64,000 nt of DNA from a virus: IMG/VR virus record IMGVR_UViG_3300020576_007358; one strand, written 5' to 3'. Below the pieces are notes generated by a model. It was not told the DNA's origin. It did no database searches and saw only the letters and a program-made list of their open reading frames with translations. The position numbers were made by a program, and so were the translations under genes. Below are positions 1,226-51,620 of the stretch, one piece after another (position 1 is the first letter of the stretch; each line of letters begins with the position of its first letter).

Positions 1226-1332
1226 CTATTCTATAGTATCCATTGCTCAACAGAAAGTAATTTTTAGTTTGTTCTAAAGTTATCCATGCTGATATTTGTT
1301 TAACACCAACAGTGGTTTAGAAGGAAAGTACC

Positions 1333-1824
1333 ATGCCAGCAGAGACACTAGACGTTTCGTCAATGATTCCGAACAAATTCGAGCCAAAGCGTAAAAATCG
1401 TTTCGTCTTGATGATCGAAGGTATCGATGCATACCTGATTAAAACAGCAGCTCGTCCGACGGTGACGACGGAAGAAGTTGAGATTCCATTCATCAACTCT
1501 CACCGTTACCTCGCCGGCAAGACGAAGTTTAACACGATCGCTGTGACTCTCTATGATCCGATCGCACCATCCGGCGCGCAGCAGGTCATGGAGTGGATCA
1601 GAACGTGCTACGAGAGCGTGTCCGGCCGTGCTGGTTACGCTGACTTCTACAAGAGAGATATCCAGCTTAAGATGTTGGATCCTGTCGGTACAGTAGTCGA
1701 ACTATGGGATGTCAAAGGTGCATTCTGCACTGAAGTCAACTTCGGTGAATTGACATATGAAGACGGTGGACCAGGAGAAATTTCTCTAACGATCAGAGCT
1801 GATAACTTCGTTCTACAGTTCTGA
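1333..1824 (+). CDS. Tail tube protein, T4 gp19-like.
   Basis: 163 aa, the same length as T4 gp19. Blocks align: FVLMIEGI vs FQVEISY, AARPTVTTEEVEIPFINS vs ATALPAGIVEKIPVGFMN, and a C-terminal W.V.G...E..L....E block. Confidence 0.55.
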   Translation: MPAETLDVSSMIPNKFEPKRKNRFVLMIEGIDAYLIKTAARPTVTTEEVEIPFINSHRYLAGKTKFNTIAVTLYDPIAPSGAQQVMEWIRTCYESVSGRAGYADFYKRDIQLKMLDPVGTVVELWDVKGAFCTEVNFGELTYEDGGPGEISLTIRADNFVLQF

Positions 1825-1890
1825 AGCACAGATTGCAACATCAGTTGCAACTGGAATATACAACTTTGTAGGCTGTGGTATAGTTATGCC

Positions 1891-22331: not shown

Positions 22332-23267
22332 ATGGTCAAATGTTTGATATGCAACGTTGAAAAACCCTATTCTATCGTTGAACATCTACGTTGTAAGCAC
22401 AAATTGTCAGTTGAAGCTTATCGTAAACAATTTGCCAACGCAGAAGTGAAATCTGCGTTGGCAATTGAAGCCATTTCTAAGCAACATAAGCTTGTTTGGC
22501 AAGATGAATCATACAAGCAAAAGATGCGTGCGTCTCGACAACGCACGCATCGTACAGATGAATTTCGTAAAAAACAATCTGATATCATTAAAAGTACATA
22601 CGCCCATGGGCATAGAACTTGGAATGATGGTCTGACAAAAGATTCGGATGAAAGACTGTCTTTGATTGGAAAAAAGAATTCAGAACATTTGACAGGCAGA
22701 ACAAAAGATACACATGATTATCTTAAAGGAAAAAGTGTTTTCATGAAGAAATTTCATGAGGATAATCCCGGTGTCTTTGTTCATAATAGAATTAATTGGT
22801 CAGAAGAACGAATAAAAGAATGGAAGGAAAAAATAAGTTCATCAGTTTGTGAAGCTTACCATGATGGCAGATGTGGCAGTTCATATCGATATATCAAAGG
22901 TTGGTTCGAAACGAAAGATTCTAAAAGAGAACATTATGATTCATCATGGGAACTTTCTTTGATGGAATTCTTGGAATCATTGAATGTTACGTGGACAAAA
23001 GCACATCGAATTACGATTGATTATCAATTTAATGGTAATAGAAGATACATTCCTGATTTTTTGATATCTTGGCGTGGTAAAAATTTGCTGCTTGAATTGA
23101 AGGGTTATGTTTCATCACAGATTGAACTTGATGAAAAAACTCAAGCAGCTAAAATTTGGTCAGAGAAACAAAACATGTGTTTTTCACTGTGTCATAGCGT
23201 AAACGAAGCAAAAGATGTCATTTGTAAATTTATGACGGAGGCAAATGAAACTAGCAAAAATTGTTAA
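22332..23267 (+). CDS. Free-standing homing endonuclease (zinc finger, [10 protein letters not shown] repeats, Vsr-like core) lying between the two dUTPase/intein pieces.
   Basis: ORF track. Same family as the other Vsr-like HEs. Confidence 0.55.
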
Positions 23268-24583: not shown

Positions 24584-25368
24584 ACGATGACATCAAGCCG
24601 ACAACGCAAGCTTCATTCGCACAGTATGGAAAGTCCTTCCAAGAAAAGCTGTGCCAAGCGCTGCTCGTTGACAAGCAGTTTGCTGAGCAGATGCTGGAGG
24701 TCTTTAACGTAACGTACCTAGAGCCAAAATACTTGGTGTTTCTTGCTGAACGTTATTTTTCGTACGCTCAGAAGTACAAGGTGTTTCCAACGATGCAGTT
24801 GCTCATCACGATCATCAGAGACGAGCTAAAGATTGGAACTGACGTTGTCATCAGAGATCAGATAGTAGATTACTTGCAACGCATGCGCTCTAATCCTGAC
24901 GTTGGAGATCTTCAGTACGTCAAGGAAAAGGCGCTAGATTTCTGCAGGAAGCAAGCGTTGCGCAGCGCTCTTGAAGAAGCGGTTGATCAGATACAGGCAG
25001 AGAAGTATGAATCGATCGTTGAAGGCATCAAGAAAGCAGTGATGGTCGGAACTGCTCCGCAGTTGGGTCATGACTTCTTTGCCGATTACGAGAGTCGCTT
25101 CACCAAGCTGTCGAGGAATGCAATTGCTACAGGTCTTCCAGAGCTAGATAAGAAAGACATCTTGAACGGTGGGTTGGGATCAGGTGAGCTAGGTTGCGTT
25201 GTTGGTGCGACTGGAACAGGAAAGTGTGTACATCGTGATACTTACATTCAGGTAAAATATACTGGAGTGAGAATTGATGGAAAACTATACAAGCCTTGGG
25301 ATCGAATTGCAACAAGGCGTGGAATCATCTTTGCTAGAGACGTCGTCGAATCAGATGAACTTGAGTGA
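24580..25368 (+). CDS. DnaB/gp41-like replicative helicase N-terminal piece, ending in P-loop GATGTGK, followed by an intein N-half (CVHRDTYIQ..., 47 aa) and a stop.
   Basis: Walker A is interrupted exactly at the GK|S position by Cys+1, the classic DnaB P-loop intein site. Confidence 0.6.
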   Translation: MNDDIKPTTQASFAQYGKSFQEKLCQALLVDKQFAEQMLEVFNVTYLEPKYLVFLAERYFSYAQKYKVFPTMQLLITIIRDELKIGTDVVIRDQIVDYLQRMRSNPDVGDLQYVKEKALDFCRKQALRSALEEAVDQIQAEKYESIVEGIKKAVMVGTAPQLGHDFFADYESRFTKLSRNAIATGLPELDKKDILNGGLGSGELGCVVGATGTGKCVHRDTYIQVKYTGVRIDGKLYKPWDRIATRRGIIFARDVVESDELE

Positions 25369-26458
25369 TAAATTCAAGTGTCAATATTGTTGTCAGCAAT
25401 ACAACAATCAATCTGGGTTGATCACGCATATTCGACGCAAGCATTCAACAACATTCACAGATTACAAGTTGAAATTTTCTCATCTTTACAAAGTTGAAAA
25501 AAGAGAAAAAAAACTTAGTCTAAATGAACTAGCTAGACGTAAACGTGATGAAAAAGCTATTGATGATGGACTTCAAGTTTTGAAGTGTGAAATTTGCAAT
25601 TATGAATCTTACTACAGTTTGATATCGCACATCGTAAGAAAACACGGTGTGGCTATGAATGAATATCGATCAAATTTCCCTTCAGCAGTTGTACAGCAAG
25701 TTACATCAGATGTCAGAGAAAAAAATAGAAAGAATGCAACGTTGCATCTTTCAGATCCTATCAAGAAAGCGAATTTTCTAAAACGAAGATCTTTTCCTTC
25801 TGAGATGAAACACTGGATCAATAAGGGATTTTCATCAGACGAAGCAAAGAAAAAAGTTGCTGAATTTCAACAAGCGATTGCGCTTAAAGGTAATAATGAA
25901 AAAACGAAGGCAAAACAGTCAATTAGAAATTCTGGTCAAAATAACCCAATGTCATTGACATCAATTTCGAAACGTCTTAACGTTTCGAAGGATGACGCAA
26001 GCAAATTGACACCGTGTTATGGAAGATCAGGCATCAAACATCCGATGTTTGGTAAAAAACACAGTATTGAAGCTTTGAACAAAATTGGTCAACACATTAA
26101 TCACACCGGACGTTCGAAAATCGAACACGAAATGTCTGATCTGATCATTTCATTGTATGGTGGTCTAAAGAACGTAGGAGTAAATGGTTGGTGCTGTGAT
26201 TACGTTAATCACGATCGTCAGATTATAGTTGAATTTTTTGGTGATTATTGGCATCACAATCCGGAAAAATATGATAGAAATTTTGTCAACAACTTTACTA
26301 AACGTTCATCTGAAGAAGTTTGGTTGCGTGATGCACGCAAATTGAATGAACTTAGAGAGAGCGGCTTTAACGTTGTTGTGATATGGGAATCTGATTGGCG
26401 AAACAAAAAAGAAGACAGTTTGAACAGGATAAAAGATGCTTTCAATAGAACATTGTGA
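25355..26458 (+). CDS. Free-standing homing endonuclease (C2H2 zinc fingers, Vsr-like core EFFGDYWH...VVIWESDW) between the helicase pieces.
   Basis: ORF 25274..26458. ATG 25355 (MNLSDKFKCQYC) overlaps the intein-N stop. Confidence 0.55.
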   Translation: MNLSDKFKCQYCCQQYNNQSGLITHIRRKHSTTFTDYKLKFSHLYKVEKREKKLSLNELARRKRDEKAIDDGLQVLKCEICNYESYYSLISHIVRKHGVAMNEYRSNFPSAVVQQVTSDVREKNRKNATLHLSDPIKKANFLKRRSFPSEMKHWINKGFSSDEAKKKVAEFQQAIALKGNNEKTKAKQSIRNSGQNNPMSLTSISKRLNVSKDDASKLTPCYGRSGIKHPMFGKKHSIEALNKIGQHINHTGRSKIEHEMSDLIISLYGGLKNVGVNGWCCDYVNHDRQIIVEFFGDYWHHNPEKYDRNFVNNFTKRSSEEVWLRDARKLNELRESGFNVVVIWESDWRNKKEDSLNRIKDAFNRTL

Positions 26459-27737: not shown

Positions 27738-30700
27738 ATGAAGACATTTACGTACCAAGAAGCTCGTGATGCATCGGTTGACTATTTTTCTGGTGACACT
27801 CTAGCTGCTGATGTTTTTGTGTCCAAATATGCGTTGCGTGATTCAAATGATCAAGTTCTAGAGAGCACACCAGAAGCCATGCATCGTCGCTTGGCGAAGG
27901 AGTTCGCTAGGATAGAGTTGAACTACAAAAACTCTATTTCGTTCGAAGAGATCATGGAGTATTTCAGCTCTTGGAAGATCGTGCCTCAAGGATCGCCGAT
28001 GTCTGCGATTGGAAACACGAAGCAGATCCAGTCTCTGTCAAATTGCTTTGTCATTGAATCGCCGTACGATTCTTACGGCGGAATCATGAAGACCGACCAA
28101 GAGCAAGCTCAGATCATGAAGCGCCGCGGCGGTGTTGGATTCGACATCTCGTCAATCAGACCAAAGGGATTGGTCACAACTAACGCTGCTCGTACGACCG
28201 ATGGCATCGGTGTTTTCATGGAGCGCTTCAGCAACACTTGCAGGGAAGTTGCGCAAGGCGGTCGCCGTGGTGCTTTGATGATGACAATCTCTGTTCATCA
28301 CCCAGAGATTCGCACGTTCATCAACATCAAGAAGAACGTTGAAAAAGTTACAGGCGCAAACATCTCGATCAGGTTGACTGATGAGTTCATGCGAGCAGTG
28401 AAGGCTGGCGAGAAGTTCCAGCTAAGGTTCCCAGTTGAAGCAAATGCACAGCATACGATCAAAGAAGATGTCGACGCTGGTGAACTGTGGAGTGAGATCA
28501 TTGAGGCTGCTCATGCGTCAGCTGAACCCGGCTTGCTATTTTGGGACAACGTTGTTAATAATGGTCCAGCAGATGCATATCCCGGCTTCAAGTCTATCTC
28601 TACGAATCCCTGCTCTGAGATCGCTCTTTGCGCTTACGATTCGTGCAGATTGCTGCTTCTCAACGTTTCAAAGTTCGTAGAGAATCCTTTCACTGACAGA
28701 GCAAATTTCAACATCAAAGAGTTCAAGAGAGCTGCGTACGTTGCTCAACGCTTGATGGACGACTTGGTTGATCTTGAGCTCGAAGCCGTCGATAGGATCA
28801 TCGACAAGATCAACTCAGATCCAGAACCAGACGACGTAAAGAAGAACGAGCTAGATCTTTGGTTGAAGATCAGGGAAAAAGGTGCCTCGGGCCGTCGCAC
28901 TGGTTTGGGAATCACTGGTCTTGGTGATGCCATTGCGTACGTTGGGTTGAAGTACGGATCAAGGGAATCTATCGATTTTACGGAAGATCTGTATAGAATG
29001 TTGGCTCTTTCTGCGTACCGTTCGTCAGTTGACATGGCGGCAGAACGTGGAGCATTTCCTGCGTTTTCTCACAACGTTGAAGCTGGTCATCCGTTCATTG
29101 AAAAGATCTTGGCACATGATGATGAGCTCAAGGCTGCATACAAGGTTCACGGTCGTCGTAACATTGCCTTGACAACAACTGCGCCCGCTGGATCAGTTTC
29201 AATCCTGACTCAAACAACGTCTGGTTGCGAACCTGTTTTTGCAGTTAGCTACAAGCGCAAGAAGAAGATCAATTCGAACGACGTCACGACCACTGCCAAC
29301 TTTGTTGATGATCTTGGAGATCGTTGGCAAGAGTATACTGTCTACCATCATGGATTGAAGATGTGGATGGATGTGACTGGAAAGACAGAGGCTGATATTG
29401 ATGAATCGCCTTACAAGGGTTCTTCTAGCTCTGAGATCGATTGGCATGCTCGTGTTGACCTTCAAGCCGCAGCCCAAAGATGGATCTGCCATGCAATTTC
29501 CAGCACTGTCAACTTGCCATCAGATACGTCAGTTGAGACAGTTAAAAACATCTACATGCGAGGTTGGGAATCTGGGTGCAAGGGAATCACAGTGTATCGT
29601 GATGGTTGCAGAGCAGGCGTTCTATCGACAGAAGAGAAAAAGCCAAGTATTCAAGGAGCGTCGACCGATGGCTTGAAAGCCCTTCTTGACATTGTAACTA
29701 AGAACGCTGGTAGCATTCCATCAGCTGATTTGTACAAAAAATTGATTGAAGAAGAGCTCACGAGGAGAGAGCCGACTCAACCAGAAAAGGTCGTCGAAGT
29801 TCATGCACCAAAGCGTCCAAAGGAGCTAGAGTGTGATATCCATCGAGTCAACATCAAAGGTGAACAGTATCTTGTCTTCGTCGGATTGCTGAACGGTGTT
29901 CCATACGAAGTCTTTGCTGGTCTGTCAGAACACGTTGAAGTGCCAAAGAAGGTTAAGAAGGGAATCTTGATCAAGAATGGCAAGAAAGACGGTGTTGCAA
30001 CGTACAACCTGAAGATTCCTGTAGGAGATGATGATTTTGTGACGTTCAAAGACGTTGTTAACTTGTTTGACAACCCAACTTACGGTTCGTTCACCAGAAC
30101 GTTGTCTCTAACGTTGAGGCATGGCATCCCGCTTCAGTACATCGTAGAGCAGCTTCGCAAAGACAAGCACAGCGACATGATGTCATTTTCAACTGTCATT
30201 GCTAGGGTCTTGAGCAAGGGTTACATCGTCGATGGAACGAAAGCAACTCAAGAAAAGCAGTGCTCAAGTTGCGGTTCTGATCAGCTAGCGTACATGGAAG
30301 GTTGCCAGACGTGCATGAACTGTGGAAGTAGCAAGTGTTCCTTATACTTAACTCCAAGACGAAAGGTTGATGACGTGAAAATCAAGATCACACCGCAGAT
30401 GCTGAGGCAGCTTGTTAACGAAGAAGTTCTGAACGTGAAGCGCAAGGGAACTTTGAAGGAAGCCTTTGGACCATATGATGCCACTGGCGAGTATGATGAT
30501 AAGGAATACGGCATGCAACCGTGGAACTTTGAAGAGTCACACAGGGAACTGTTTGCTCAGGCGCTTGAACCAGTCATCAATGAGTTCATGGAGTCTTTGG
30601 CCGAGATCGTTGAAAGAGCTTCGCCACCAGATGCTAACATGTCTGCGCAAGATATTGGTAGCGATGAATACAACAGCTTCGGTGAAGACCTCAAAGAAGA

Positions 30701-31118
30701 TCTTTTGAAGGTCATTGCTCAACACATGAAGAATGCGTCTGAAAATTTTGGTCTTTTAGAGGTTAACGTCATGAAGATAAAGCTAAGTGATCTGCGAAAG
30801 ATCATCAGAGAAGTTGCAGTTTCACCTGCTGTCTTCAAGAGCAGCCAACCTGCAAAAGATCCGATGGAGAAGAAGAACATTGTCAAAGCGGTCTCTGATT
30901 TGAAGACAGCGTTCGAATCAGCGCTTCTAAGCAACCTTGTTCTTGCGAACCCAGAGAAGTACGATGAATCCTCGAGAGAATTTGATGATCAGATGTACGA
31001 ATCTCTTAAGACAACAGCGGCCTCAGCATCTGAACAAGTAGCATCAAAGATCAATGATGCAGTTCAGACTGCATGGGTTGCTGCACACAAAAACTCTAAG
31101 GTAAATCACTTAAAGTGA
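27738..31118 (+). CDS. Ribonucleotide reductase, probably class II monomeric NrdJ-like, with a C-terminal zinc ribbon and an additional C-terminal extension of about 250 aa.
   Basis: NPCSEIAL active-site motif. Zinc ribbon CSSCGSDQ...CQTCMNCG. The extension carries two copies of the MKIKLSDLRKII-like peptide. Confidence 0.65.
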   Translation: MKTFTYQEARDASVDYFSGDTLAADVFVSKYALRDSNDQVLESTPEAMHRRLAKEFARIELNYKNSISFEEIMEYFSSWKIVPQGSPMSAIGNTKQIQSLSNCFVIESPYDSYGGIMKTDQEQAQIMKRRGGVGFDISSIRPKGLVTTNAARTTDGIGVFMERFSNTCREVAQGGRRGALMMTISVHHPEIRTFINIKKNVEKVTGANISIRLTDEFMRAVKAGEKFQLRFPVEANAQHTIKEDVDAGELWSEIIEAAHASAEPGLLFWDNVVNNGPADAYPGFKSISTNPCSEIALCAYDSCRLLLLNVSKFVENPFTDRANFNIKEFKRAAYVAQRLMDDLVDLELEAVDRIIDKINSDPEPDDVKKNELDLWLKIREKGASGRRTGLGITGLGDAIAYVGLKYGSRESIDFTEDLYRMLALSAYRSSVDMAAERGAFPAFSHNVEAGHPFIEKILAHDDELKAAYKVHGRRNIALTTTAPAGSVSILTQTTSGCEPVFAVSYKRKKKINSNDVTTTANFVDDLGDRWQEYTVYHHGLKMWMDVTGKTEADIDESPYKGSSSSEIDWHARVDLQAAAQRWICHAISSTVNLPSDTSVETVKNIYMRGWESGCKGITVYRDGCRAGVLSTEEKKPSIQGASTDGLKALLDIVTKNAGSIPSADLYKKLIEEELTRREPTQPEKVVEVHAPKRPKELECDIHRVNIKGEQYLVFVGLLNGVPYEVFAGLSEHVEVPKKVKKGILIKNGKKDGVATYNLKIPVGDDDFVTFKDVVNLFDNPTYGSFTRTLSLTLRHGIPLQYIVEQLRKDKHSDMMSFSTVIARVLSKGYIVDGTKATQEKQCSSCGSDQLAYMEGCQTCMNCGSSKCSLYLTPRRKVDDVKIKITPQMLRQLVNEEVLNVKRKGTLKEAFGPYDATGEYDDKEYGMQPWNFEESHRELFAQALEPVINEFMESLAEIVERASPPDANMSAQDIGSDEYNSFGEDLKEDLLKVIAQHMKNASENFGLLEVNVMKIKLSDLRKIIREVAVSPAVFKSSQPAKDPMEKKNIVKAVSDLKTAFESALLSNLVLANPEKYDESSREFDDQMYESLKTTAASASEQVASKINDAVQTAWVAAHKNSKVNHLK

Positions 31119-31715: not shown

Positions 31716-32374
31716 GCGAGAATAAGAACACAGTTGAGCTTGTTGGGTTGTATGGTTCGGATGAAACGCATGCGCTAAGTGCATGGACTTCAACGTCAAG
31801 AGATCTAACGGATGATAAGCGTGGCAGGATCGGATCGTTGCTTCAAAGACTAGCGTCTGAAGAGCATGGTACGCCGTTCGAAAAGAGCTCGATTCACTTT
31901 CTTGTGACAACAGAAGTTGCATCACACATTCATCTTCTCAAGCATCGCATCGGTGTTTCTATCAACGCTGAATCTGCGCGGTACAAAGAATTGAAAGATG
32001 ACAAGTATTACGTTCCATTTGACTGGGATGTTGAAGAACGAGCTCAATACATTCAACACCTTGAATCTTCGTTGGCACAGTACCATGAAGTTCTAGAACG
32101 TCTTGTGAAGAAAGGCATGTCAAGGAAGCGAGCAAAAGAATCTGCAAGATTTTACCTGCCGTACGGCAATCAGATCACCGCAGACGTGATGTTTAACTTC
32201 AGAAGCTTCGTTCACTTCTTGGAGCTCAGAAGGTCCAAGCATGCTCAAGCAGAGATCTACAACGTTGCTGATGCAATGCTTCGTTCAGTCGTCGCGGACG
32301 GCCGCTTCAACAAGAGCTTCTTGGCATTTGGATTCATCGACGAGATGGGTAACGTTCTAGAACCGGGAGATTGA
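31712..32374 (+). CDS. thyX: Flavin-dependent thymidylate synthase ThyX.
   Basis: RHR...S signature: FRSFVHFLELRRSKHAQAE. Confidence 0.65.
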   Translation: MSENKNTVELVGLYGSDETHALSAWTSTSRDLTDDKRGRIGSLLQRLASEEHGTPFEKSSIHFLVTTEVASHIHLLKHRIGVSINAESARYKELKDDKYYVPFDWDVEERAQYIQHLESSLAQYHEVLERLVKKGMSRKRAKESARFYLPYGNQITADVMFNFRSFVHFLELRRSKHAQAEIYNVADAMLRSVVADGRFNKSFLAFGFIDEMGNVLEPGD

Positions 32375-32958
32375 AAATGGCAAAGATCATCGTCGTTGAA
32401 GGTGCAGATCAGCTTGGGAAAGAGACACAATCTAGGATGCTAGTAGCTTGGCTCATGAGCCAAGGTTACAGAGCTACACGAGTTGAAGTGCCAGTTCGAG
32501 ATCACTTCACTTACCCGCTAATCTACAAGATGTTGAAGAATGGATGGGCAAATTCTTACCCAAACCTATTCCAGGCGATCCAACATGCTAATCGACTAGC
32601 GTTCCAGACGTTCACGCTTCCGAAGCTAGAGCGTGAAAATGATTACGTAGTGTTCGATCGTTGGACGTTGTCGTCGATCATCTATGGTGATCTGACGTAC
32701 GCAGATGCTGAGAAAACAAGAGAGAGGATATCTAAGCTGCGCCGAGCCGATCTGACAATCGTGATTCACGGTAAGTCATTTGGCAAGCGCGGTGACGATG
32801 CTTATGAAGCTGATGAAGTATTCCAGAGGATCGTCAACAATCGTTACGTTGATTGGGCCGATGCTCACCTTGCTTGCGCAAAGGTTTCAAACGCAGGATC
32901 TCGTCATGAGGTCCACGAGAAGGTCATCGTTGCTGTCAGAGAATCTGGCCTAATTTGA
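32371..32958 (+). CDS. tmk: Thymidylate kinase.
   Basis: P-loop IVVEGADQLGKETQ and DRWTLSSIIYG motif. Confidence 0.55.
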   Translation: MKMAKIIVVEGADQLGKETQSRMLVAWLMSQGYRATRVEVPVRDHFTYPLIYKMLKNGWANSYPNLFQAIQHANRLAFQTFTLPKLERENDYVVFDRWTLSSIIYGDLTYADAEKTRERISKLRRADLTIVIHGKSFGKRGDDAYEADEVFQRIVNNRYVDWADAHLACAKVSNAGSRHEVHEKVIVAVRESGLI

Positions 32959-32994
32959 GTTGAACAGAACGCAAACCTGTAGTAGGATACTAAG

Positions 32995-33282
32995 ATGGAT
33001 AAAACATACAAGCTATCAGATTCAGTTATCGCACGCATTGCACAAATTCTTCAAGAGGGAATCTTGATGGGCGTTGACATCGTTGATCTTCTTCGAATGG
33101 TTGAAGTTGAAACGTTTGGCGAAGAGCTCGTCTTGACGAAGGGTTACGTTGAACGAGTGAAGGCATCTCATGATGATGCACTTGCAAAGGTTGAACAGCT
33201 TAAGTCTGAGAGAAATAAGAGCAGAGTAGTTATCGGTGACTTATGTCTGTGTTTGAAGGTGCCGTTGCAATTCTTCTGCTAA
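32995..33282 (+). CDS. Hypothetical protein; N-terminus weakly resembles the shared motif (YKLSDSVIARIAQILQEG).
   Basis: ORF track. Confidence 0.3.
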   Translation: MDKTYKLSDSVIARIAQILQEGILMGVDIVDLLRMVEVETFGEELVLTKGYVERVKASHDDALAKVEQLKSERNKSRVVIGDLCLCLKVPLQFFC

Positions 33283-33349
33283 CTCTTTGCTTTTTTATCG
33301 GTGAGCTAAAAAGGAAACATGAAAAAGAACGTTGATCGTTTAGGAAAAA

Positions 33350-34525
33350 ATGGCGCGTATACTACGAACATATCAATTTAATTGCAAGCAATGCGGTAAA
33401 AAGTGTGAAAAGTCTAACCGTAGTGGAAAACAACCAAATTTTTGCGATACTTCATGTAGTCAAATTTGGTCATATGCACATGGTCGAATTAAAACTGCTT
33501 CACGTGAATTCAAAATTCACCAACATGGCGTAGAAAGAGTTCATGAACTCGAAAAATTGCAGTATTACACATTTACATGCGAATACTGCAATGCTAACGT
33601 TACAAAGCGTAAAAGATCTCCTTTGCCAAGATTTTGCAATCGAAAGTGTTCAACGCAATTTACAGCAGTTCATGGTCGTAAACCAACGATTAACGCTGTA
33701 CATCGTAAAGCTATGAGCGAAAGAGCTACGGCTAAGTTGCTAGAGCAACCAGAGAATTTGTATTCTTGGAATACAATTAAAGGATGGTACAAAGGTAACT
33801 TCTTTAGAAGTTCGTATGAATATCACTTTCTTAAGTGGCTCGAAACAAAACAAGTCAATTTGCAGACAGATTTGAAAAAAGTACCTACTATTCAATATGA
33901 GTTTGACGGTCGTGGTCACACATATATCCCAGATTTTTACGTTGAAAAATGGAGAACGTTGTTTGAAGTTAAAAGTTCTTATGCGTGTAAAAATGATCCA
34001 AAAGTTCTTGCAAAAGCTGTTGCAGCAGAAGATTTCTGTAAAGACAAGCAATTGACTTATCAAATCATAACAGAAGATACATTGCCAGAATTGAAATCAG
34101 ACATAACTTTGATTAAGCATGATAAGTGTGTATTTTTGTTGTCAACATCTAAATCGACTGATGATCGACTTGAACACATGTTCGTTGAACAAATGAAGTT
34201 CATGAAACTCCTGCGTCAGGAAAGAAATTTCCCAGAATTTCCAGTTGATGTTTCTTCAAAACCTGGTCAGAAACTTCTTAAAGAAGTTGCACATGAATGC
34301 ATGCATGAATTGTTTGAATCTGTGCATTTGCTTCGTAATTCAAAATCACACAGAATATCTGATGTGCAAGATTTTGATAAAGAGGCCTTTTTGGAAGAGT
34401 TGTCAGATACGTTGCATTATCTGATGGAATTGTTTATCTTGAGTGGTATTACTAGCAAAGATTTGTACAAAGCATATATGAAAAAAGGAACAATCAATTT
34501 TGCTAGAATATTGAGCAATTATTGA
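33350..34525 (+). CDS. Homing endonuclease-like protein: N-terminal CxxC zinc fingers, PD-(D/E)xK core (YIPDFYV...FEVK), and a C-terminal extension whose last residues duplicate the N-terminus of the downstream Hsp20 gene.
   Basis: ORF track. Repeated AYMKKG..N..RI motif at 34480 and 34555. Confidence 0.5.
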   Translation: MARILRTYQFNCKQCGKKCEKSNRSGKQPNFCDTSCSQIWSYAHGRIKTASREFKIHQHGVERVHELEKLQYYTFTCEYCNANVTKRKRSPLPRFCNRKCSTQFTAVHGRKPTINAVHRKAMSERATAKLLEQPENLYSWNTIKGWYKGNFFRSSYEYHFLKWLETKQVNLQTDLKKVPTIQYEFDGRGHTYIPDFYVEKWRTLFEVKSSYACKNDPKVLAKAVAAEDFCKDKQLTYQIITEDTLPELKSDITLIKHDKCVFLLSTSKSTDDRLEHMFVEQMKFMKLLRQERNFPEFPVDVSSKPGQKLLKEVAHECMHELFESVHLLRNSKSHRISDVQDFDKEAFLEELSDTLHYLMELFILSGITSKDLYKAYMKKGTINFARILSNY

Positions 34526-35121
34526 TTGCATCAGGTGTAACGCTTGATGAGATGCACGAAGCGTACATGAAAAAAGGTGAAGTCAACCGAAAAAGGATCG
34601 AATCAGGGTACTTAGCCCCTGTACATTGCTTAAGGAGTGTTTTATCATGTTTTCACGAGATTGGTTCTCGTGGAAAGGAAAACACTGCTATGCTAACTCG
34701 TTACTATGATACGATGAGAAATCCAACCTACAAGTTCGGTGACTTTAACGCAATCTTTGATGACATGCTTTCAATTGATCCATTTAAGTCAGAATCTTCT
34801 ATCTGGACGAAGAAGATCATGAACAATCTACCAGAACCAACGTTTTGGCATGAGAAGACTGAAGAAGGTTCTGCTCTTCACGTTGAACTACCGGGATACA
34901 AGAAAGAAGACGTATCGATAACGCTGCAAGACAAGACTCTTGTTGTCAAGGCTGAACGTAAGATGCCCGGCGGTGCGAAGACTGTCTCGTGGAGCTGGCG
35001 CATTCAGGATACGTACGAGTCCAATCCAACGTTTGCGAAGCTAGCTGATGGCATCCTTACGATAGGATTGAAGAGTAAACAACCACCACCTGAAGAAGCA
35101 CTCAGCATAAAGATCGAGTAA
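34522..35121 (+). CDS. Small heat-shock protein, Hsp20/alpha-crystallin family.
   Basis: ACD-like core HVELPGYKKEDVSITLQDKTLVVKAERK. Confidence 0.55.
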   Translation: MIASGVTLDEMHEAYMKKGEVNRKRIESGYLAPVHCLRSVLSCFHEIGSRGKENTAMLTRYYDTMRNPTYKFGDFNAIFDDMLSIDPFKSESSIWTKKIMNNLPEPTFWHEKTEEGSALHVELPGYKKEDVSITLQDKTLVVKAERKMPGGAKTVSWSWRIQDTYESNPTFAKLADGILTIGLKSKQPPPEEALSIKIE

Positions 35122-35146
35122 GCAAGTACGGCACCTACCTGGTACT

Positions 35147-35171
35147 CAACGCGCGGTAACCCCGCGCGTTG
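35147..35171 (+). terminator. Perfect 10-bp stem-loop (caacgcgcgg-taacc-ccgcgcgttg) downstream of the Hsp20 gene.
   Basis: Read directly from the sequence. No strong U-tract follows. Confidence 0.3.
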
Positions 35172-35334
35172 CACGTTTAGGGGTTAGTGATCACGTGAGG
35201 GCCCACGAATATATCTCGGTAATTTGATGTGGTTATCCACCCTTGCATTGTTGCAATATTGGTGTGCAAAGCTGCGACTATCGAGTGTGAGAATTATTCT
35301 ATATGAGTTACTAACTTGACGAGATAATTATGAC

Positions 35335-36012
35335 ATGGGAAATAGATCTGATCAAGTTAAAAAGTTGTGGCAAACACCAGAATTTCGTGAAAAAATTATC
35401 GCAGCATCTAAAGACGGAAAAGCGTCGATTGAATCAAAACTTAAGCGTTCTAAAAGCTCAAGTAAATTGTGGTCTGATCCGGATTATTGTGAAAAACAAC
35501 GAATAAAACACAATGAACGAAAGAAAAGATTTGAACAAAAGCGAGTGACTATAACGTGTCTGACGTGTGGAAAAGAATGTAAGGTTAATGCAACAGTTGC
35601 AAAAACTAAGAAGTACTGTTCTCGTCGTTGCGTTATTAACAACCCAGCTTTTAACGTAAATCGAAATTTTTCCAACAGCACGTGTGTTGCTTGTCAGACA
35701 GAATTCAAACCAACTGGTGTTAAACAGTTGTGCTGCACTACATGCGTTCCAAATAATTCAGCAAAATCACGTTGGAATTCGTATAAATTGACTCAACCAA
35801 TGTACGAAATGTTGCTAAGTCAACAGGGAAATTGTTGCGCACTGTGCGAAATTTCATTCAGTAATTTGAATTCAAAAGAAATTCATGTAGATCATGATCA
35901 TACTACAAATAAAATTCGTGGCATATTGTGTATGCGGTGCAATCGTAGCTTGGGTGTGGTAGAGTATATTCCACACTTTTTGGAAAAAGTAGCAACTTAT
36001 GTCAACATTTGA
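35335..36012 (+). CDS. HNH endonuclease with NUMOD-like repeats (homing endonuclease candidate).
   Basis: CALC...HVDHDH...RGILCMRCN HNH core. Repeats KLWQTPEFREKI and KLWSDPDYCEKQ. Confidence 0.55.
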   Translation: MGNRSDQVKKLWQTPEFREKIIAASKDGKASIESKLKRSKSSSKLWSDPDYCEKQRIKHNERKKRFEQKRVTITCLTCGKECKVNATVAKTKKYCSRRCVINNPAFNVNRNFSNSTCVACQTEFKPTGVKQLCCTTCVPNNSAKSRWNSYKLTQPMYEMLLSQQGNCCALCEISFSNLNSKEIHVDHDHTTNKIRGILCMRCNRSLGVVEYIPHFLEKVATYVNI

Positions 36013-36952
36013 TATCGATACACGAACAATCATTCGTGTAATTCATGGTTCATATGCATATGGACTCAACATTGCAGGTTCAGATATCGATTACAAGGCT
36101 GTTTGTGTACCTACAAAAGAGCGGTATTTTGGATTTTTGAACAACTTTGAACAGGCTGAGATGATGGCATCAAAAACAGGTGGTGTTGACTCTGTGACCT
36201 TTGCACTTGATAAGTTCGTGCGGCTCGCTGCTGACTGCAACCCAAACATCATAGAGATCCTGTTCGTTGATGACAGCGACGTCCTCGACATCAATTCTTG
36301 GGGTGAAGAGCTCCGTGAGTTCAAAGACAATTTCATATCCAGGAAGGCGAAGCACACTTTCTCGGGCTACGCTCATTCTCAGCTTCATCGCATCAAGAAT
36401 CACCGTGCATGGTTGCTGAACCCTCCCGCGAGCGCCCCAGCACGATCCGATTTTGGGCTGTCCGACGTGTCTCGTGTTTCGAAGAGTGAGCTCGGCGCTT
36501 ACGATTCTGCGATCGAGAGCGGTATTGCTCTCGACGTGCCGAAGAGCGTCCTGACTCTGTTCACAAGGGAAAAGCAGTACGCCGCAGCAAAGACGCACTA
36601 TGACCAGTACGTTCACTGGAAGAAGTCTCGCAATCCTGCTCGAGCAGAGCTCGAAGCAAAGATTGGATATGATAGTAAACATGGCGCGCATCTCATGAGG
36701 TTGATGCGCATGTGCAAGGAGATCCTTGAGACTGGCAAGGTTAACGTGAAGCGTCGATTCGATAGAGAGGAACTTCTGGAGATTCGTAACGGTCATCGTC
36801 CCTACGATAGCCTCATCGAGGAAGCTGAGAGGCTTGAGAGCGATTGTGAAGAGCTGTACAAGACTTCTACAGTGCGCAAAGAGCCAGATCGGGAGAAGAT
36901 CAATGCATGGCTCGTGGATTTCACTGAGCGTTACCTTGCAATTCATGGCTGA
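35999..36952 (+). CDS. Pol-beta superfamily nucleotidyltransferase.
   Basis: GSYAYGLNIAGSDIDY matches the GS-x9-13-DhD signature, resembling class I CCA-adding enzymes and minimal NTases. Region has elevated GC. Confidence 0.5.
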   Translation: MSTFDIDTRTIIRVIHGSYAYGLNIAGSDIDYKAVCVPTKERYFGFLNNFEQAEMMASKTGGVDSVTFALDKFVRLAADCNPNIIEILFVDDSDVLDINSWGEELREFKDNFISRKAKHTFSGYAHSQLHRIKNHRAWLLNPPASAPARSDFGLSDVSRVSKSELGAYDSAIESGIALDVPKSVLTLFTREKQYAAAKTHYDQYVHWKKSRNPARAELEAKIGYDSKHGAHLMRLMRMCKEILETGKVNVKRRFDREELLEIRNGHRPYDSLIEEAERLESDCEELYKTSTVRKEPDREKINAWLVDFTERYLAIHG

Positions 36953-37019
36953 AAATTAGTTTGAACATGGGGCGCACAGAAGGTAAAGTAAGCACATCTA
37001 ACGGAGACGGAGAAAGAAA

Positions 37020-37895
37020 ATGGGAAAGCTCAATCAAGTCATTGCAGTTGAAAAGTCGGTGAAGAACAAGGCGCATGCTGCGATCACTGAGATCTACCAG
37101 AAGATGCAGAAGGCTCCCCTCCTGCAGGGAATTTCGCGGACGTACCGTCCGAAGGACGAGCTTGGTGAGGCTCTTCCGTCTGAGTCGTCCCGTGTTCAGC
37201 TGAATGCTACGGATTTCCTCAAGGAGCTCTCGTCGACCTTGACGGATCTCTTTGACGTCACTGCGACGAAGGATTTCGCGAACTGCGAGGCTCGCACTGA
37301 TCTTACGGTCGGTGATGTGGTTCTTGCGAAGAACGTGCCGGTTACGTACCTTCTCTTCCTCGAGAAGAAGCTGGTTGATCTGCACACGTTCGTCAGCAAG
37401 CTTCCCGTCCTTGATTCTTCGGAGGAATGGACTCTGGATCCGAACGTGAACTGCTACGCTACGAAGCCGTCCGAGACGACTCGTACGAAGAAGGTCTTTG
37501 TCCCGCTTGTCCTTGCTCCGGCGACTGACAAGCACGCAGCCCAAGTCAAGGAGGGCTACGAGGATCAGGTCGTGGGTTTCTGGAAGACTGTGAAGTTCTC
37601 TGGAGCTCTTCCGGCTCAGCGAGTTGCTGAGCTTCTGGCTCGAGTCGAGAAGCTGCAACGTGCAGTGAAGTTCGCTCGTGAGGAATGCAACGCTCGTGAG
37701 GCACCACCAGTCCAGGTTGGAGCCCGCGTTTTCGATTACCTGTTCGGTTTATCCGTAACAGGTTTGCGCAAGCTGAAAATCAGCCTTACGCTAACAGAGA
37801 GAGCTAGCAAAATTGTAGGTTCAAATCCTACCCCCTCCACTGACTCACAGTCAAGGAGTGATTCACCTCAAGTTATGCTTGGAACGAATCAATGA
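37020..37895 (+). CDS. Hypothetical protein in the GC-rich island. Its 3' tail reads through tRNA-like half alpha-3', and its stop abuts tRNA-like half alpha-5'.
   Basis: ORF track. The antisense ORF 36921..37658 is low-complexity. Confidence 0.4.
   Translation: MGKLNQVIAVEKSVKNKAHAAITEIYQKMQKAPLLQGISRTYRPKDELGEALPSESSRVQLNATDFLKELSSTLTDLFDVTATKDFANCEARTDLTVGDVVLAKNVPVTYLLFLEKKLVDLHTFVSKLPVLDSSEEWTLDPNVNCYATKPSETTRTKKVFVPLVLAPATDKHAAQVKEGYEDQVVGFWKTVKFSGALPAQRVAELLARVEKLQRAVKFAREECNAREAPPVQVGARVFDYLFGLSVTGLRKLKISLTLTERASKIVGSNPTPSTDSQSRSDSPQVMLGTNQ
37815..37839 (+). tRNA. tRNA-like 3' half 'alpha': T-arm gtagg-TTCAAAT-cctac, 3' acceptor cccctcc, discriminator a. CCA is not encoded.
   Basis: Read from sequence. 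Perfect 7/7 complementarity to GGAGGGG at 37896, which lies downstream. Confidence 0.4.
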
Positions 37896-48036: not shown

Positions 48037-49047
48037 ATGTCGAAGAAAGTTCTGATCACGGGTATCGCTGGTTTTCTTGGTTCGCATCTTGCGTTGCATC
48101 ACATCGCAGCCGGTGATGAGGTGATCGGTCTGGATGATTTCTCTTCGTCGAAGAGAGATTCTCTTCATCTTGCTACGATCAAGCGCCTCATGGCAGAGAA
48201 GAAGTTGGGGGAAGTCTATGAGTGCGACATTGCAGAGCAGAAGCAGGTTCATTACTGCTTGCAGAAGCACGCAATGAAAAAGTCACCAGCGGGAATTGAT
48301 CTGATCTATAACTTCGCTTGCCCTGCTTCACCGCCTCGATACCAACAGATTCCAACGAAGACGATGATGACATGCGTGGCCGGAACTAACAACATCATCG
48401 ACGTTGCTATGTGTAACAATTCTGTAGTTGTGCACGCCTCAACGTCTGAAGTGTACGGCGATCCGGATATCACTCCTCAAGTTGAATCTTATAGGGGTTG
48501 CGTGAACCCTTACGGTCCCCGAGCATGCTACGATGAAGGCAAGCGCGCAGCAGAAGCGTTGTGCTACGATTCTCTTTTCAAGTACGGCGTAGACGTACGT
48601 CTCGTTAGAATATTCAACACGTATGGCCCTCATCTTGATGTAACAGACGGACGTGTAGTTTCAAACTTTATAACTCAAGCCTTGTACAACAAAGATATCA
48701 CAATCTATGGTGATGGTTCTCAAACAAGGTCATTTTGTTACGTAGATGATCTGATACGTGGAATTGTTTCTTTGGGAGCCTTGAGCTACAATCCAAAAAC
48801 GCCCATTAATTTGGGAAATCCAAATGAGTTTACCATTAAAGAACTTGCAGATGTTGTTATGTCTTTGATTCCAAGTAGCAAATCAAAATTTGTATGGCAG
48901 TCCATACCTATTGATGATCCACTTCAGAGAAAACCAGATATTACTATAGCGAAAGAAATTCTTAAATGGCAACCGAGTGTGCAATTGCTGGAAGGTCTTC
49001 AGAAGACGATACACTACATTCAGAACGTGAATGTGCAATTTACGTGA
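48037..49047 (+). CDS. NAD-dependent epimerase/dehydratase (UDP-glucuronate decarboxylase / UXS-like).
   Basis: GIAGFLGSHL Rossmann motif and YDEGKRAAE catalytic YxxxK. Confidence 0.6.
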   Translation: MSKKVLITGIAGFLGSHLALHHIAAGDEVIGLDDFSSSKRDSLHLATIKRLMAEKKLGEVYECDIAEQKQVHYCLQKHAMKKSPAGIDLIYNFACPASPPRYQQIPTKTMMTCVAGTNNIIDVAMCNNSVVVHASTSEVYGDPDITPQVESYRGCVNPYGPRACYDEGKRAAEALCYDSLFKYGVDVRLVRIFNTYGPHLDVTDGRVVSNFITQALYNKDITIYGDGSQTRSFCYVDDLIRGIVSLGALSYNPKTPINLGNPNEFTIKELADVVMSLIPSSKSKFVWQSIPIDDPLQRKPDITIAKEILKWQPSVQLLEGLQKTIHYIQNVNVQFT

Positions 49048-49694
49048 TCACTAACAATGTTAATAACAAACGATATGTTGGGAAATCTGTTCAGCCAACT
49101 AGACGTTGGCTTGGGCACAAATCTTATGCCCGACGTGGTGATCTAAGAAGATTGTATTGTTCGATGCGAAAACATGGCGTTGAACAGTTCAAATTTGAAA
49201 TATTGACGTGGTGTGATAGTGAAGACGCTGCTTTTCTTGAAGAAAAAAGAATAGTAACTGAGTGGAATCTATGTGATCCACGTGTAGGTTATAACTTGAC
49301 TAGTGGTGGTCGTGGTGGATGTAGAGTGTCAGATCAAGTACGTCATAGAATGAAATTGCGTGAACCTTCAATGAAGGGTCGTAAACACACTGAAGAAACA
49401 AAGCGTCTATTGTCAATAGCTAGCTCTGGTGCTAATAATGCAAATTTTGGTAAACATAAAAGTGATGAAACTAAGCAAAAAATGAGTGATTCACAAAAAG
49501 GTCGTAAATTTACTGATGATCATCGTGAAAAGCTACGCCAGGCGAAGCTTGGAAAAAAGACAGGACGTAGTATACCACCAGAAATGGCTATAGCAAGAAG
49601 AAATATGAAAGGAACTATCGAGGCAAAAGAAGCTGCTAAATTGGGTTGGATAACACGTCGTGCCAAAATTAATGATGATACTGTAAATCAGTAA
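49044..49694 (+). CDS. GIY-YIG homing endonuclease with NUMOD3 repeats.
   Basis: VITNNVNNKRYVGKS, R..H, YNLTSGG. GTG 49044 overlaps the epimerase stop. ORF track 48966..49694. Confidence 0.55.
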   Translation: MITNNVNNKRYVGKSVQPTRRWLGHKSYARRGDLRRLYCSMRKHGVEQFKFEILTWCDSEDAAFLEEKRIVTEWNLCDPRVGYNLTSGGRGGCRVSDQVRHRMKLREPSMKGRKHTEETKRLLSIASSGANNANFGKHKSDETKQKMSDSQKGRKFTDDHREKLRQAKLGKKTGRSIPPEMAIARRNMKGTIEAKEAAKLGWITRRAKINDDTVNQ

Positions 49695-50732: not shown

Positions 50733-51620
50733 TCACCCTTTGACGGCCTCGGATACCCGAACGAACATTTCGATTTTTGTCGTGAGAATGGTCTTGATGC
50801 TCACGCAATTACTGAGCACGGTAACATGAACAGTTACGCTCATGCTCAACTCGCAGTTGAAGATTGGAATAAAGCAAACCCAAAACTTCCTTTCAAGTAC
50901 ATTCCGGGTTGTGAAATGTACTTTCACCCAAGCTTGAAGCAGTGGGAAGTTGACAAGCTTCGTGCTGAAGAAGCCCTGGTCGATAAGAAAGCAGCAGCGA
51001 AGCTCCTGAAGGAGCAGGAAAAGCTGCAGACAAAGATCATTGCTGTCGTCGATGAAGCGGATGAAACCGAAGACATCGAGATGACCAATGCTCTGACAGT
51101 TGAAAATGAAGACGAGTCAAAGTCAACGAAGCACTTCAATCCCGTCAACCGTCGTCATCACCTTGTTGTTCTGCCAAAGAACCAGCAGGGCTTGCTGTCC
51201 ATTTTCTCTGCGTGCTCGAAAGCGTACATGCAGGGTTTTTACAGATTCCCTCGCATCGACTTGGAGATGCTGAAGGAAGCAGGAAAAGATCGTAACATCG
51301 TTGTCACTTCTGCATGCATTCATCCAGATTCAATTGTGATCACCAATTGTGGTTCAATGAAGATTGTTAATCTAGTTGAACATGTAAAAAATGGCACTGA
51401 AATTTCGGTGTTGTCATATGATCATGACACAAACCAACTTGTTTTTAAGAAAGTTACTTGGGCTGATAAAACAAGAGAACAAGCAAAAATTGTTCGAATT
51501 AAGCTTAAAAATGGTGCAACATTGCGGGTAACGCCTGATCACAAAGTCTATACTAAACGTGGTTGGGTAGAAGCACAAGAACTTCTGAAAACAGATCATA
51601 TACTGTCAATCCACCAATAG
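50733..51620 (+). CDS. dnaE: DnaE (Pol III alpha) PHP-domain N-terminal piece followed by an intein N-half (CIHPDSIVIT...TPDHKVYT, starts 51315) and a stop. The upstream in-frame start region at 50619/50670..50720 is separated from it by TAG (50721) and TAA (50730).
   Basis: SPFDGLGYPNEHF...AITEHGN...GCEMY PHP motifs. Intein blocks A and B. ORF track 50826..51620. Confidence 0.55.
   Translation, partial: SPFDGLGYPNEHFDFCRENGLDAHAITEHGNMNSYAHAQLAVEDWNKANPKLPFKYIPGCEMYFHPSLKQWEVDKLRAEEALVDKKAAAKLLKEQEKLQTKIIAVVDEADETEDIEMTNALTVENEDESKSTKHFNPVNRRHHLVVLPKNQQGLLSIFSACSKAYMQGFYRFPRIDLEMLKEAGKDRNIVVTSACIHPDSIVITNCGSMKIVNLVEHVKNGTEISVLSYDHDTNQLVFKKVTWADKTREQAKIVRIKLKNGATLRVTPDHKVYTKRGWVEAQELLKTDHILSIHQ

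Follow-up and report, generated by a model that had tools for sequence, protein, structure and literature searches.

In this study we examined a stretch of viral DNA of 64,000 nucleotides (nt), read 5′ to 3′ on one strand and taken from IMG/VR virus record IMGVR_UViG_3300020576_007358 (the window), in which we are nearly certain that a cassette at 33339-34524 has replaced the central 268 nt of a phage mazG gene. The open reading frame (ORF) of the cassette encodes a TnsA-like nuclease domain fused to a diverged MazG domain, and the two ends of the resident mazG still adjoin it. The best overall reading of this arrangement, and one that we consider likely, is a homing endonuclease of the free-standing type, encoded by a cassette that brings along a substitute for the gene it destroys.

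Anatomy of the interrupted mazG locus

The comparison with endonuclease-free relatives that the original prediction had proposed for this region proved feasible and gave exact junctions. An exact look-up of the upstream neighbour protein, orf95, returned 23 contigs, and L058 was the one without the nuclease. Alleles with the cassette are called filled here (the window and L040-L049) and those without it empty (L058 and L126-L134). Nucleotides 1-555 of L058 match window positions 32784-33338 at 100% identity, and nt 824-3499 match 34525-37200 at 98.99%. Between these blocks, 268 nt of L058 make up the rest of an intact resident mazG of 125 codons (MKKNVDRLTEMWEQQHDFMKLL...HYFFEIVIASGVTLDEMHEAYMKKGEVNRKRIESGY), its protein starting MKKNVDRLTEMW... 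at an ATG equivalent to 33319, and it is in the place of these 268 nt that the window has the 1186 nt of 33339-34524, comprising a short leader and the fusion ORF as far as its stop codon. Identity with L058 breaks off at 33338/33339, an identical junction is found in L138, a filled allele that is 9% diverged, and the junctions recur in more than 15 contigs, which stem from independent runs and assemblers (Logan, JGI, ENA). No terminal repeats were found at the junctions. The resident and cassette MazG sequences share 49% protein identity and 52% DNA identity. The parts of the locus are:

33319..33338, + strand: remaining 5′ end of the resident mazG, 20 nt from the ATG on (ATGAAAAAGAACGTTGATCG), identical to L058
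33339..33349, + strand: 11-nt leader at the left edge of the cassette, containing an AGGA ribosome-binding site and lacking its own promoter
33350..34525, + strand: cassette ORF, a nuclease-MazG fusion of 391 amino acids (aa), from Pfam matches (PF08722 and PF08761) and an AlphaFold2 model
33383..33649, + strand: two Cys4 Zn-ribbon-like modules (C12, C15, C32, C36; C77, C80, C96, C100)
33740..34147, + strand: PD-(D/E)XK (TnsA-like) nuclease domain, residues ~131-266, from Pfam, alignment and Foldseek
34160..34522, + strand: MazG-like / dimeric-dUTPase-type domain of the cassette, residues 271-391, without a start codon of its own
34436..34522, + strand: copy 1 of a repeated peptide, the tail of the cassette MazG domain, fitting the fusion-family consensus AYMKKGTINFARILxGY
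34525..34611, + strand: copy 2 of that peptide, the final 29 codons of the resident mazG, now orphaned
34612..34689, + strand: native mazG-hsp20 spacer with a CCCCT...TTATCAT promoter-like motif, a hairpin and a ribosome-binding site, from a comparison of 15 relatives
34690..35121, + strand: hsp20 proper, 143 aa (MLTRYYD...), the relatives' Hsp20 aligning from the ATG at 34690

The locus had first drawn attention through its repeat. The original prediction described the 391-aa ORF and, behind it, a TTG-start ORF of 199 aa at 34522..35121, both of which are present as described, and claimed that the end of the former, taken for a homing endonuclease, repeats the 5′ end of the latter, taken for hsp20. 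The repeat itself is real. Copy 1 (ILSGITSKDLYKAYMKKGTINFARILSNY) forms the last 29 residues of the 391-aa ORF and copy 2 (IASGVTLDEMHEAYMKKGEVNRKRIESGY) residues 2-30 of the 199-aa ORF; they are identical at 14 of 29 residues in a gapless alignment and begin 89 nt apart. Their local BLOSUM62 score is 78, compared with 26.8 ± 4.1 (maximum 47) in 2000 shuffles, which answers the concern that the similarity might not be significant. The DNA of the two copies differs, as had been stated, with 43 of 87 bases identical (49%) and one core of 34 nt at 76% identity. What did not survive is the Hsp20 label. Residues 4-30 of the 199-aa ORF match positions 136-162 of the 162 in the Pfam dUTPase_2 profile (PF08761), that is, its very end, while the Pfam HSP20 match is limited to residues 112-198, and in L058 the same peptide is the C-terminus of the intact MazG. 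Because Pfam and PHROGs matches place both copies at MazG-type C-termini, outside the HSP20 domain, we identify both by profile as the C-terminal ends of MazG-like pyrophosphohydrolases (dimeric-dUTPase type). It is thus mazG that is duplicated and not hsp20, and copy 2 represents what the resident mazG has left at its 3′ end.

The two tails also differ in their affinities. An ending of the copy 1 type is that of the fusion family, and an ending of the copy 2 type (...INxxRIENGY) is that of standalone MazG proteins. Copy 1 is on average closer to fusion tails (mean identity 0.64) than to standalone tails (0.53), and the reverse is true of copy 2 (0.46 and 0.60). At the DNA level copy 2 matches L058 at 100% and copy 1 at 49%.

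Relatives in IMG/VR support this assignment. At 35 loci we found a MazG that is 50–61% identical to that of the cassette, in each case standalone, of ~122 aa, starting M(D)KLxEMW and ending ...GY-stop. Gene order in the IMG/VR relatives is conserved as ribonucleotide reductase (RNR) - orf87 - ThyX - Tmk - orf95 - mazG - hsp20, and no nuclease lies between orf95 and mazG at any of the 35 loci. The relatives' mazG-hsp20 spacer consists of a CCCCTTTTCA...TTATCAT motif, a hairpin, an AAGGAG ribosome-binding site and the hsp20 start ATG-TTG-ACT (MLTRYY). In the window this conserved spacer and the hsp20 start (ATG 34690) come after copy 2, not copy 1, and copy 2 therefore occupies the position of the native mazG 3′ end. 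Several other searches returned little: GenBank phages yielded no blastn match to 32300-36100 and, in a tblastn search with the MazG part, only distant Gordonia phage dUTPase/MazG genes (~32% identity), a degenerate DNA pattern for the copy 2 peptide gave no match in IMG/VR, and a metagenome contig scan with a 20-mer common to both alleles matched only an unrelated gene (MKKNVDRRQFIAGAG...).

The fused appearance of the 199-aa ORF has a simple origin. The resident stop codon is lost, with TTA (TAC TTA) where relatives have TAA or TGA, and therefore copy 2 is joined to hsp20 in one ORF. The same TTA is found in empty alleles, where the stopless mazG reads through the 26-codon spacer into hsp20 (window 34609-34692; L058:536-1420). 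Many empty alleles accordingly contain MazG-Hsp20 ORFs of 293–298 aa, including L126 at 94% identity, and in distant relatives mazG has a normal stop. L040 has lost 1 nt of the spacer, which interrupts the frame coming from upstream, and gene calling in that allele starts hsp20 (147 aa) at its own start codon. Judging from these alleles, the 199-aa ‘Hsp20’ ORF is best described as a read-through artefact.

At the other end, the 20-nt 5′ remnant of mazG upstream of the cassette had been overlooked by the original prediction. Its ATG at 33319 now opens a 20-codon ORF that is out of frame with the cassette ORF and overlaps its start. We also considered TTGATCG at 33333 as a decayed mazG start, and ruled it out as the empty allele places the resident start at ATG 33319. 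Between orf95 and mazG the window has a small hydrophobic ORF at 33245-33337 (MSVFEGAVAILLLTLCFFIGELKRKHEKER); several relatives have a comparable short hydrophobic ORF there with a stop that overlaps the mazG start, and in the window mazG starts inside the ORF. A GATCG pentamer stands 0–2 nt before each breakpoint of the replaced segment (L058 mazG nt 16-20 and 282-286). Four such pentamers occur on one strand of the 375-nt resident mazG, compared with ~1.9 per kb per strand in the window, and the sole GATCG of the cassette (window 34163) coincides with the nuclease/MazG boundary and forms part of a 9-nt stretch (TGATCGACT) that is identical at the left breakpoint. This pattern was recognized post hoc and could be due to chance, or could mark a cleavage or recombination hotspot.

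The cassette protein, its relatives and its foreign composition

The AlphaFold2 model of the 391-aa protein has a mean predicted local distance difference test score of 85. In it, each of the N-terminal Zn-ribbon modules, which presumably bind DNA, consists of short beta-hairpins followed by a helix. The nuclease domain matches PF08722 over residues 175-242 (40 bits, cut-off 26.5), and its best Foldseek matches in the PDB are the TnsA structures 1t0f and 1f1z, with probability 1.0. Among its catalytic-type residues E165 and D195 are invariant in the family alignment, and E206-x-K208 is nearly so. Free-standing homologues of the nuclease stop at query residues ~264-266, and the boundary between the nuclease and MazG domains is therefore placed there. 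Past this boundary the protein matches PF08761 (25.2 bits, cut-off 22.9) and positions 28-153 of the 153 in phrog_12184 (E = 9e-15). The acidic residues E320, E323, E349, E350 and D353 are invariant in the family alignment, and Foldseek matches the all-alpha fold to DCTPP1 (7mu5, target-normalised TM-score 0.71) and DR2231. On profile, motif and fold we assign the C-terminus to the MazG-like / dimeric dUTPase (PF08761) family, with a predicted pyrophosphohydrolase activity.

When 5.8 billion proteins were searched with the 391-aa ORF, 26 relatives were obtained, one of them an identical protein found on 13-21 contigs and the rest 36–58% identical. The C-terminal MazG domain is present in all 21 of those that were aligned, and the ‘short’ members of the family (250–284 aa) lack only the N-terminal Zn-ribbon part. 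This settles a further point of the original prediction, which had seen in the end of the ORF a piece of donor flanking sequence retained in frame: the in-frame piece is a complete and conserved MazG domain. We also rejected the idea that a 1-nt deletion (TGATGGAT -> TGATGAT) had fused a separate endonuclease ORF to mazG at this locus, because the in-frame fusion is conserved across all aligned relatives. In a neighbour-joining tree of MazG domains the cassette clusters with all the fusion proteins and the resident gene with the standalone genes. An exhaustive phmmer search of 1.84 billion cluster representatives returned many free-standing nucleases and only ~7–10 clusters that combine both domains. 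The fusion occupies the same genomic slot (Tmk ... orf~89 - fusion - hsp20) in L036, L037, L122 and L124, and there no mazG remnant is present at the slot.

NUMOD3 scores above the Pfam cut-off in P0017, a family member, and in the free-standing paralogues L037:1766-2551 and L026:8333-9139, and relatives in the family carry it in place of, or besides, the Cys4 modules. P0017 (438 aa) is the most distant fusion and lies in a different genomic context (L125:322-2498); directly after it comes a protein whose N-terminus resembles, by eye, a further all-alpha pyrophosphohydrolase domain, joined in one protein to a HAD-type-like region. A nuclease-domain profile run against IMG/VR gave 62 loci, all of them distant free-standing nucleases (≤41% identity) and none beside mazG, hsp20 or tmk. 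NCBIfam has no model for the nuclease-MazG fusion, and our full-text literature searches found no description of an endonuclease-MazG fusion. The closest IMG/VR relative of the cassette MazG (61%) is a standalone MazG at L001:5986-6345, right behind orf95, which groups with the fusion clade and not with the standalone genes; it may be a fusion minus its nuclease part.

The composition of the cassette sets it apart from its surroundings. Its guanine-plus-cytosine (GC) content is 34.9%, and its third-position value (GC3) is 0.27 for the half that encodes the nuclease and 0.31 for the half that encodes MazG, compared with a GC content of 42–49% and a GC3 of 0.43–0.53 in the flanking genes and a GC3 of 0.50 in the resident mazG. 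Both halves are low in GC3, and they therefore arrived together from elsewhere. On this compositional evidence the cassette is of foreign origin. The original prediction was right in this respect, and right that the foreign DNA brought an in-frame, diverged homologue of resident sequence; the resident counterpart still adjoins it.

Mobility of the cassette and the explanations considered

The cassette is present or absent at one locus among near-identical genomes, with flanks that are 99–100% identical. In the ten filled alleles only 2 sites vary within the 1186 nt of the cassette, against 10–30 per 200 nt in the flanks, and variation restarts at 33302 on the left and 34572 on the right. One and the same cassette is found on at least four left and at least four right flank haplotypes, the left haplotype of L045/46 differing at 16 of 239 adjacent bases. 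Near both junctions the flanks of the empty L058 equal those of the window exactly, and the empties L127-134 have a near-junction right haplotype in common with the filled L042/45/46/48. When proteins are clustered at 90%, the cassette protein is represented by 3 distinct sequences and the neighbouring ORF by 17. The empties have 38 variable sites in the 268-nt resident segment.

A second lineage is represented by L138, whose cassette is 90.8% identical to that of the window, has both junctions identical to the window's, and lies beside a copy 2 of the L126 type, an empty haplotype; its left flank is 97% identical to that of the empty L126. Because the junctions are identical in all filled alleles, there was a single illegitimate insertion at the outset. 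The allele comparison also shows that it is old, with filled and empty alleles coexisting in at least two lineages. The window-type cassette, by the same comparison, moved recently onto flanks as diverged as those of L138. We had considered a very recent invasion by the cassette as a whole, and L138, with 9% divergence and the same junctions, tempers that view to a recent spread of the window type. Substitutions in copy 2 are all synonymous and in the third position, and five of the seven are also found in empty alleles, which is how remnants would look if they were repeatedly re-drawn from functional resident genes by recombination. One variant of the cassette protein, P0057, found on one 4.3-kb contig, has two residue differences, one of them D195H at the catalytic Asp of the PD motif; it may represent a copy in decay whose nuclease is dead, or else an error of sequencing.

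Unlike the anatomy, composition, polymorphism and flank backgrounds described above, site-specific cleavage, its target and functional complementation are things that we infer. During co-infection the nuclease would cut cassette-free mazG alleles, and the break would be repaired from the cassette-bearing genome, with homology provided by the mazG ends that survive and by the neighbouring genes, so that the cassette is copied (intronless homing). The fused MazG domain would then take over the function lost by insertion, and the cost of the element to the phage is proposed to be low because this domain supplies what was destroyed. The carrier would be spared from recutting because its cassette MazG DNA is just 52% identical to the resident gene, 268 nt of which are deleted, a putative immunity towards a target that is itself putative. 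The 20-codon ORF that runs from the old mazG ATG may throttle translation of the cassette. We hold nuclease-driven homing and complementation by the MazG domain, taken jointly, to be reasonably probable. Further support for a homing endonuclease may be seen in the NUMOD3 of the family and its paralogues, and in a window rich in nucleases. The free-standing paralogues of the nuclease sit at scattered intergenic sites between conserved genes, in related phages and in the window.

Several points weigh against a homing cassette that complements its own damage. NUMOD3 was not detected by its Pfam profile in the 391-aa protein of the window, which has the two Cys4 modules instead, and no close donor of the cassette was found among the 5.8 billion proteins, the best outside relative being 58% identical. 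The later spread could be explained by ordinary homologous recombination and selection without a nuclease, and the age and conservation of the fusion, whose two active sites are intact, are compatible with a genuine bifunctional enzyme as well. Furthermore, most of the alleles were fetched by exact protein identity, which strips nonsynonymous variation by construction, and the counts in 90% clusters correct for this only partly. Ascertainment as the whole explanation of the invariant cassette is disfavoured in our data by three observations that speak against it: synonymous variation is missing too, the cluster sequences number 3 versus 17, and the resident segment of the empties retains its 38 variable sites.

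The main rival explanation builds on some of these points. Under it, a bifunctional enzyme (combining, for example, host-DNA degradation with sanitising of the deoxynucleoside triphosphate (dNTP) pool) displaced the resident gene without homing, through one illegitimate entry followed by ordinary recombination and selection. The fusion has been kept at 36–58% identity with both catalytic motifs intact, it occupies the same slot in several lineages without remnants, there is one set of junctions only, and filled and empty alleles coexist in two lineages with no sign of fixation, all of which such a displacement would accommodate. It accounts poorly for a nuclease with free-standing NUMOD3 paralogues scattered among conserved genes of related phages and the window, for a cassette that is adenine-thymine (AT)-rich like the other endonuclease islands, and for the D195H variant, which would be expected of a decaying selfish nuclease. 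Nor does it readily explain an essentially invariant cassette on flank haplotypes that are as diverged as those of L138, whose own cassette is 9% diverged. We regard displacement without homing as rather unlikely.

The remaining explanations fare much worse. That the last 87 nt of mazG were duplicated locally in tandem and then diverged in place, with no part played by the nuclease, would suit two copies that directly adjoin at a start-to-start spacing of 89 nt. However, the copies fall in different MazG clades and differ in base composition, copy 2 is continuous in L058 with a different, intact mazG, and 49% nucleotide identity beside flanks that are 99–100% identical is impossible by divergence in place, so that we give this explanation hardly any weight. 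Equally improbable is the reading of the original prediction, in which a cassette beside hsp20 carried a diverged hsp20 5′ end from its donor. It is understandable, as gene callers merge the repeated peptide with Hsp20 in the 199-aa ORF, but the peptide fits the ends of dUTPase_2/MazG profiles and not Hsp20, it is the C-terminus of an intact MazG in L058, and the relatives' Hsp20 begins at the ATG equivalent to 34690. An assembly chimera or sequencing artefact joining two mazG alleles is the least credible of all; both alleles do circulate in the same kind of samples, but the independent contigs that share the junctions include the 9%-diverged version. A homing endonuclease that carries its own mazG replacement thus remains our preferred reading.

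Neighbouring candidate mobile elements, meaning and comparison with known systems

The window contains further candidate mobile genes. A second AT-rich endonuclease gene, the ORF at 35335..36012 (225 aa, Endonuclease VII/HNH type, GC 36%), lies in an island at 35281-36042. It is present in the window, L040, L047 and L058, and ~68 nt stand in its place in L041-L046 and L048. When carriers and insert-free alleles are compared over the downstream RlaP gene (region 35999-36200 and beyond), the first 100 nt are only 61% identical, the next 100 nt 85%, and the rest 98–99%; this is the classic picture of a diverged flank that has been co-converted. The two endonucleases of this region have Zn modules whose resemblance (E = 0.03) is too weak to build on. 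Other AT-rich islands with endonuclease-type ORFs or an intein are found at 22332-23267, 25274-26458, 48966-49694, 61767-62555 and 50826-51620, and contain a TnsA-like paralogue, an ORF with NUMOD3 and a REase-like domain, two GIY-YIG ORFs (one SegE-like with NUMOD3), and a PHP-domain protein with an intein/Hint domain. In total, the window has at least five AT-rich endonuclease ORFs and one intein besides the cassette, and by this count the segment is unusually rich in selfish nucleases. The RNR ORF of the window (27738-31118) encodes 1126 aa here and in some relatives, and is split into ORFs of 1008 aa and 115 aa in others, such as L040, L041 and L045; the region of the split, especially 30600-30800, is hypervariable, with 62 variable sites per 200 nt.

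The replacement is documented with unusual clarity by natural empty and filled alleles. These before-and-after alleles place a phage endonuclease gene within a conserved metabolic gene, most of which is deleted, with a working-looking replacement in the endonuclease's own protein, and the nuclease-MazG fusion is kept across a family of uncultured large phages. Homing endonucleases usually spare their hosts in one of two ways, by residing in self-splicing introns or inteins or by intergenic placement, and self-complementation, if true, would be a third. More tentatively, and on balance doubtfully, the cassette may be a self-complementing gene drive, in which a selfish endonuclease destroys a useful resident gene and is the sole remaining source of its function, a strategy distinct from those of other such elements. 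Under this reading the nuclease may also require the MazG domain for its mechanism: MazG-type domains are obligate dimers, and the domain could pair two nuclease domains for double-strand cleavage, or couple cutting to the dNTP pool. If the nuclease does target the empty allele, the cassette would be a natural example of such a drive in viruses, and would offer selfish elements a clear route for swapping core phage genes for foreign homologues. There is a lesson for annotation as well, as the mazG remnant fakes an N-terminal extension of Hsp20 and the fusion ORF conceals a mazG gene.

MazG-like, DCTPP1 and dimeric dUTPase proteins are all-alpha NTP pyrophosphohydrolases and common phage auxiliary genes. 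The C-terminal domain of the cassette protein resembles them in fold, in its E-x2-E ... E-E-x2-D acidic motif and in its size of ~120 aa, and differs from standalone phage MazG proteins in being the C-terminal part of a nuclease and in forming a separate clade. The nuclease domain is most like TnsA, a subunit of the Tn7 transposase, which is its best Pfam and structural match and has the same restriction-endonuclease-like fold and D...E-x-K motif. Unlike TnsA, the cassette protein lacks the TnsA C-terminal domain, has N-terminal Zn-ribbons and a C-terminal MazG domain, and shares only ~14% sequence identity with it. A Tn7-like transposon was considered and rejected, as the neighbours are Tmk, orf95, Hsp20 and RlaP, with no TnsB/TnsC partners and no transposon ends. 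I-Ssp6803I is a homing endonuclease of the PD-(D/E)XK class, with this fold and motif as well.

Free-standing homing endonucleases that spread by intronless homing have been described in T4-like phages, where SegF is associated with gene 56, SegG with gene 32 and MobE with nrdB (PMC2988022). Like the seg and mob genes, the cassette is rich in AT, has no promoter, encodes an endonuclease and lies between or in conserved phage genes; it is present or absent among close relatives, its flanking DNA is co-inherited, and the carrier's copy of the likely target is diverged. It departs from them in that its nuclease, for which cleavage is a prediction here, is of the PD-(D/E)XK (TnsA-like) type and not GIY-YIG or HNH, and in that it lies inside the presumed target gene with 268 nt of that target deleted. 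It differs, too, in being translationally fused to a full substitute gene, a fusion that is conserved as a family.

The closest anatomy so far described is that of the gene hybrids made by mobile endonuclease ORFs in mitochondria, namely atp6 of Allomyces macrogynus and atp6, atp9, cox2 and nad3 of Glomus (PMC3630166). In those hybrids, as in the cassette, an endonuclease element brings a foreign, diverged part of a host gene that is used in frame, and leaves downstream an unused native C-terminal remnant that is near-identical to the gene of element-free relatives. The mitochondrial elements replace only the C-terminus, which is joined to the native 5′ part with the endonuclease ORF behind it, whereas the phage cassette replaces nearly the whole gene and leaves a native 5′ remnant of 20 nt that is out of frame. 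Moreover, one polypeptide of the cassette contains both the endonuclease, at its N-terminus, and the foreign MazG, and the host is a phage rather than a mitochondrion.

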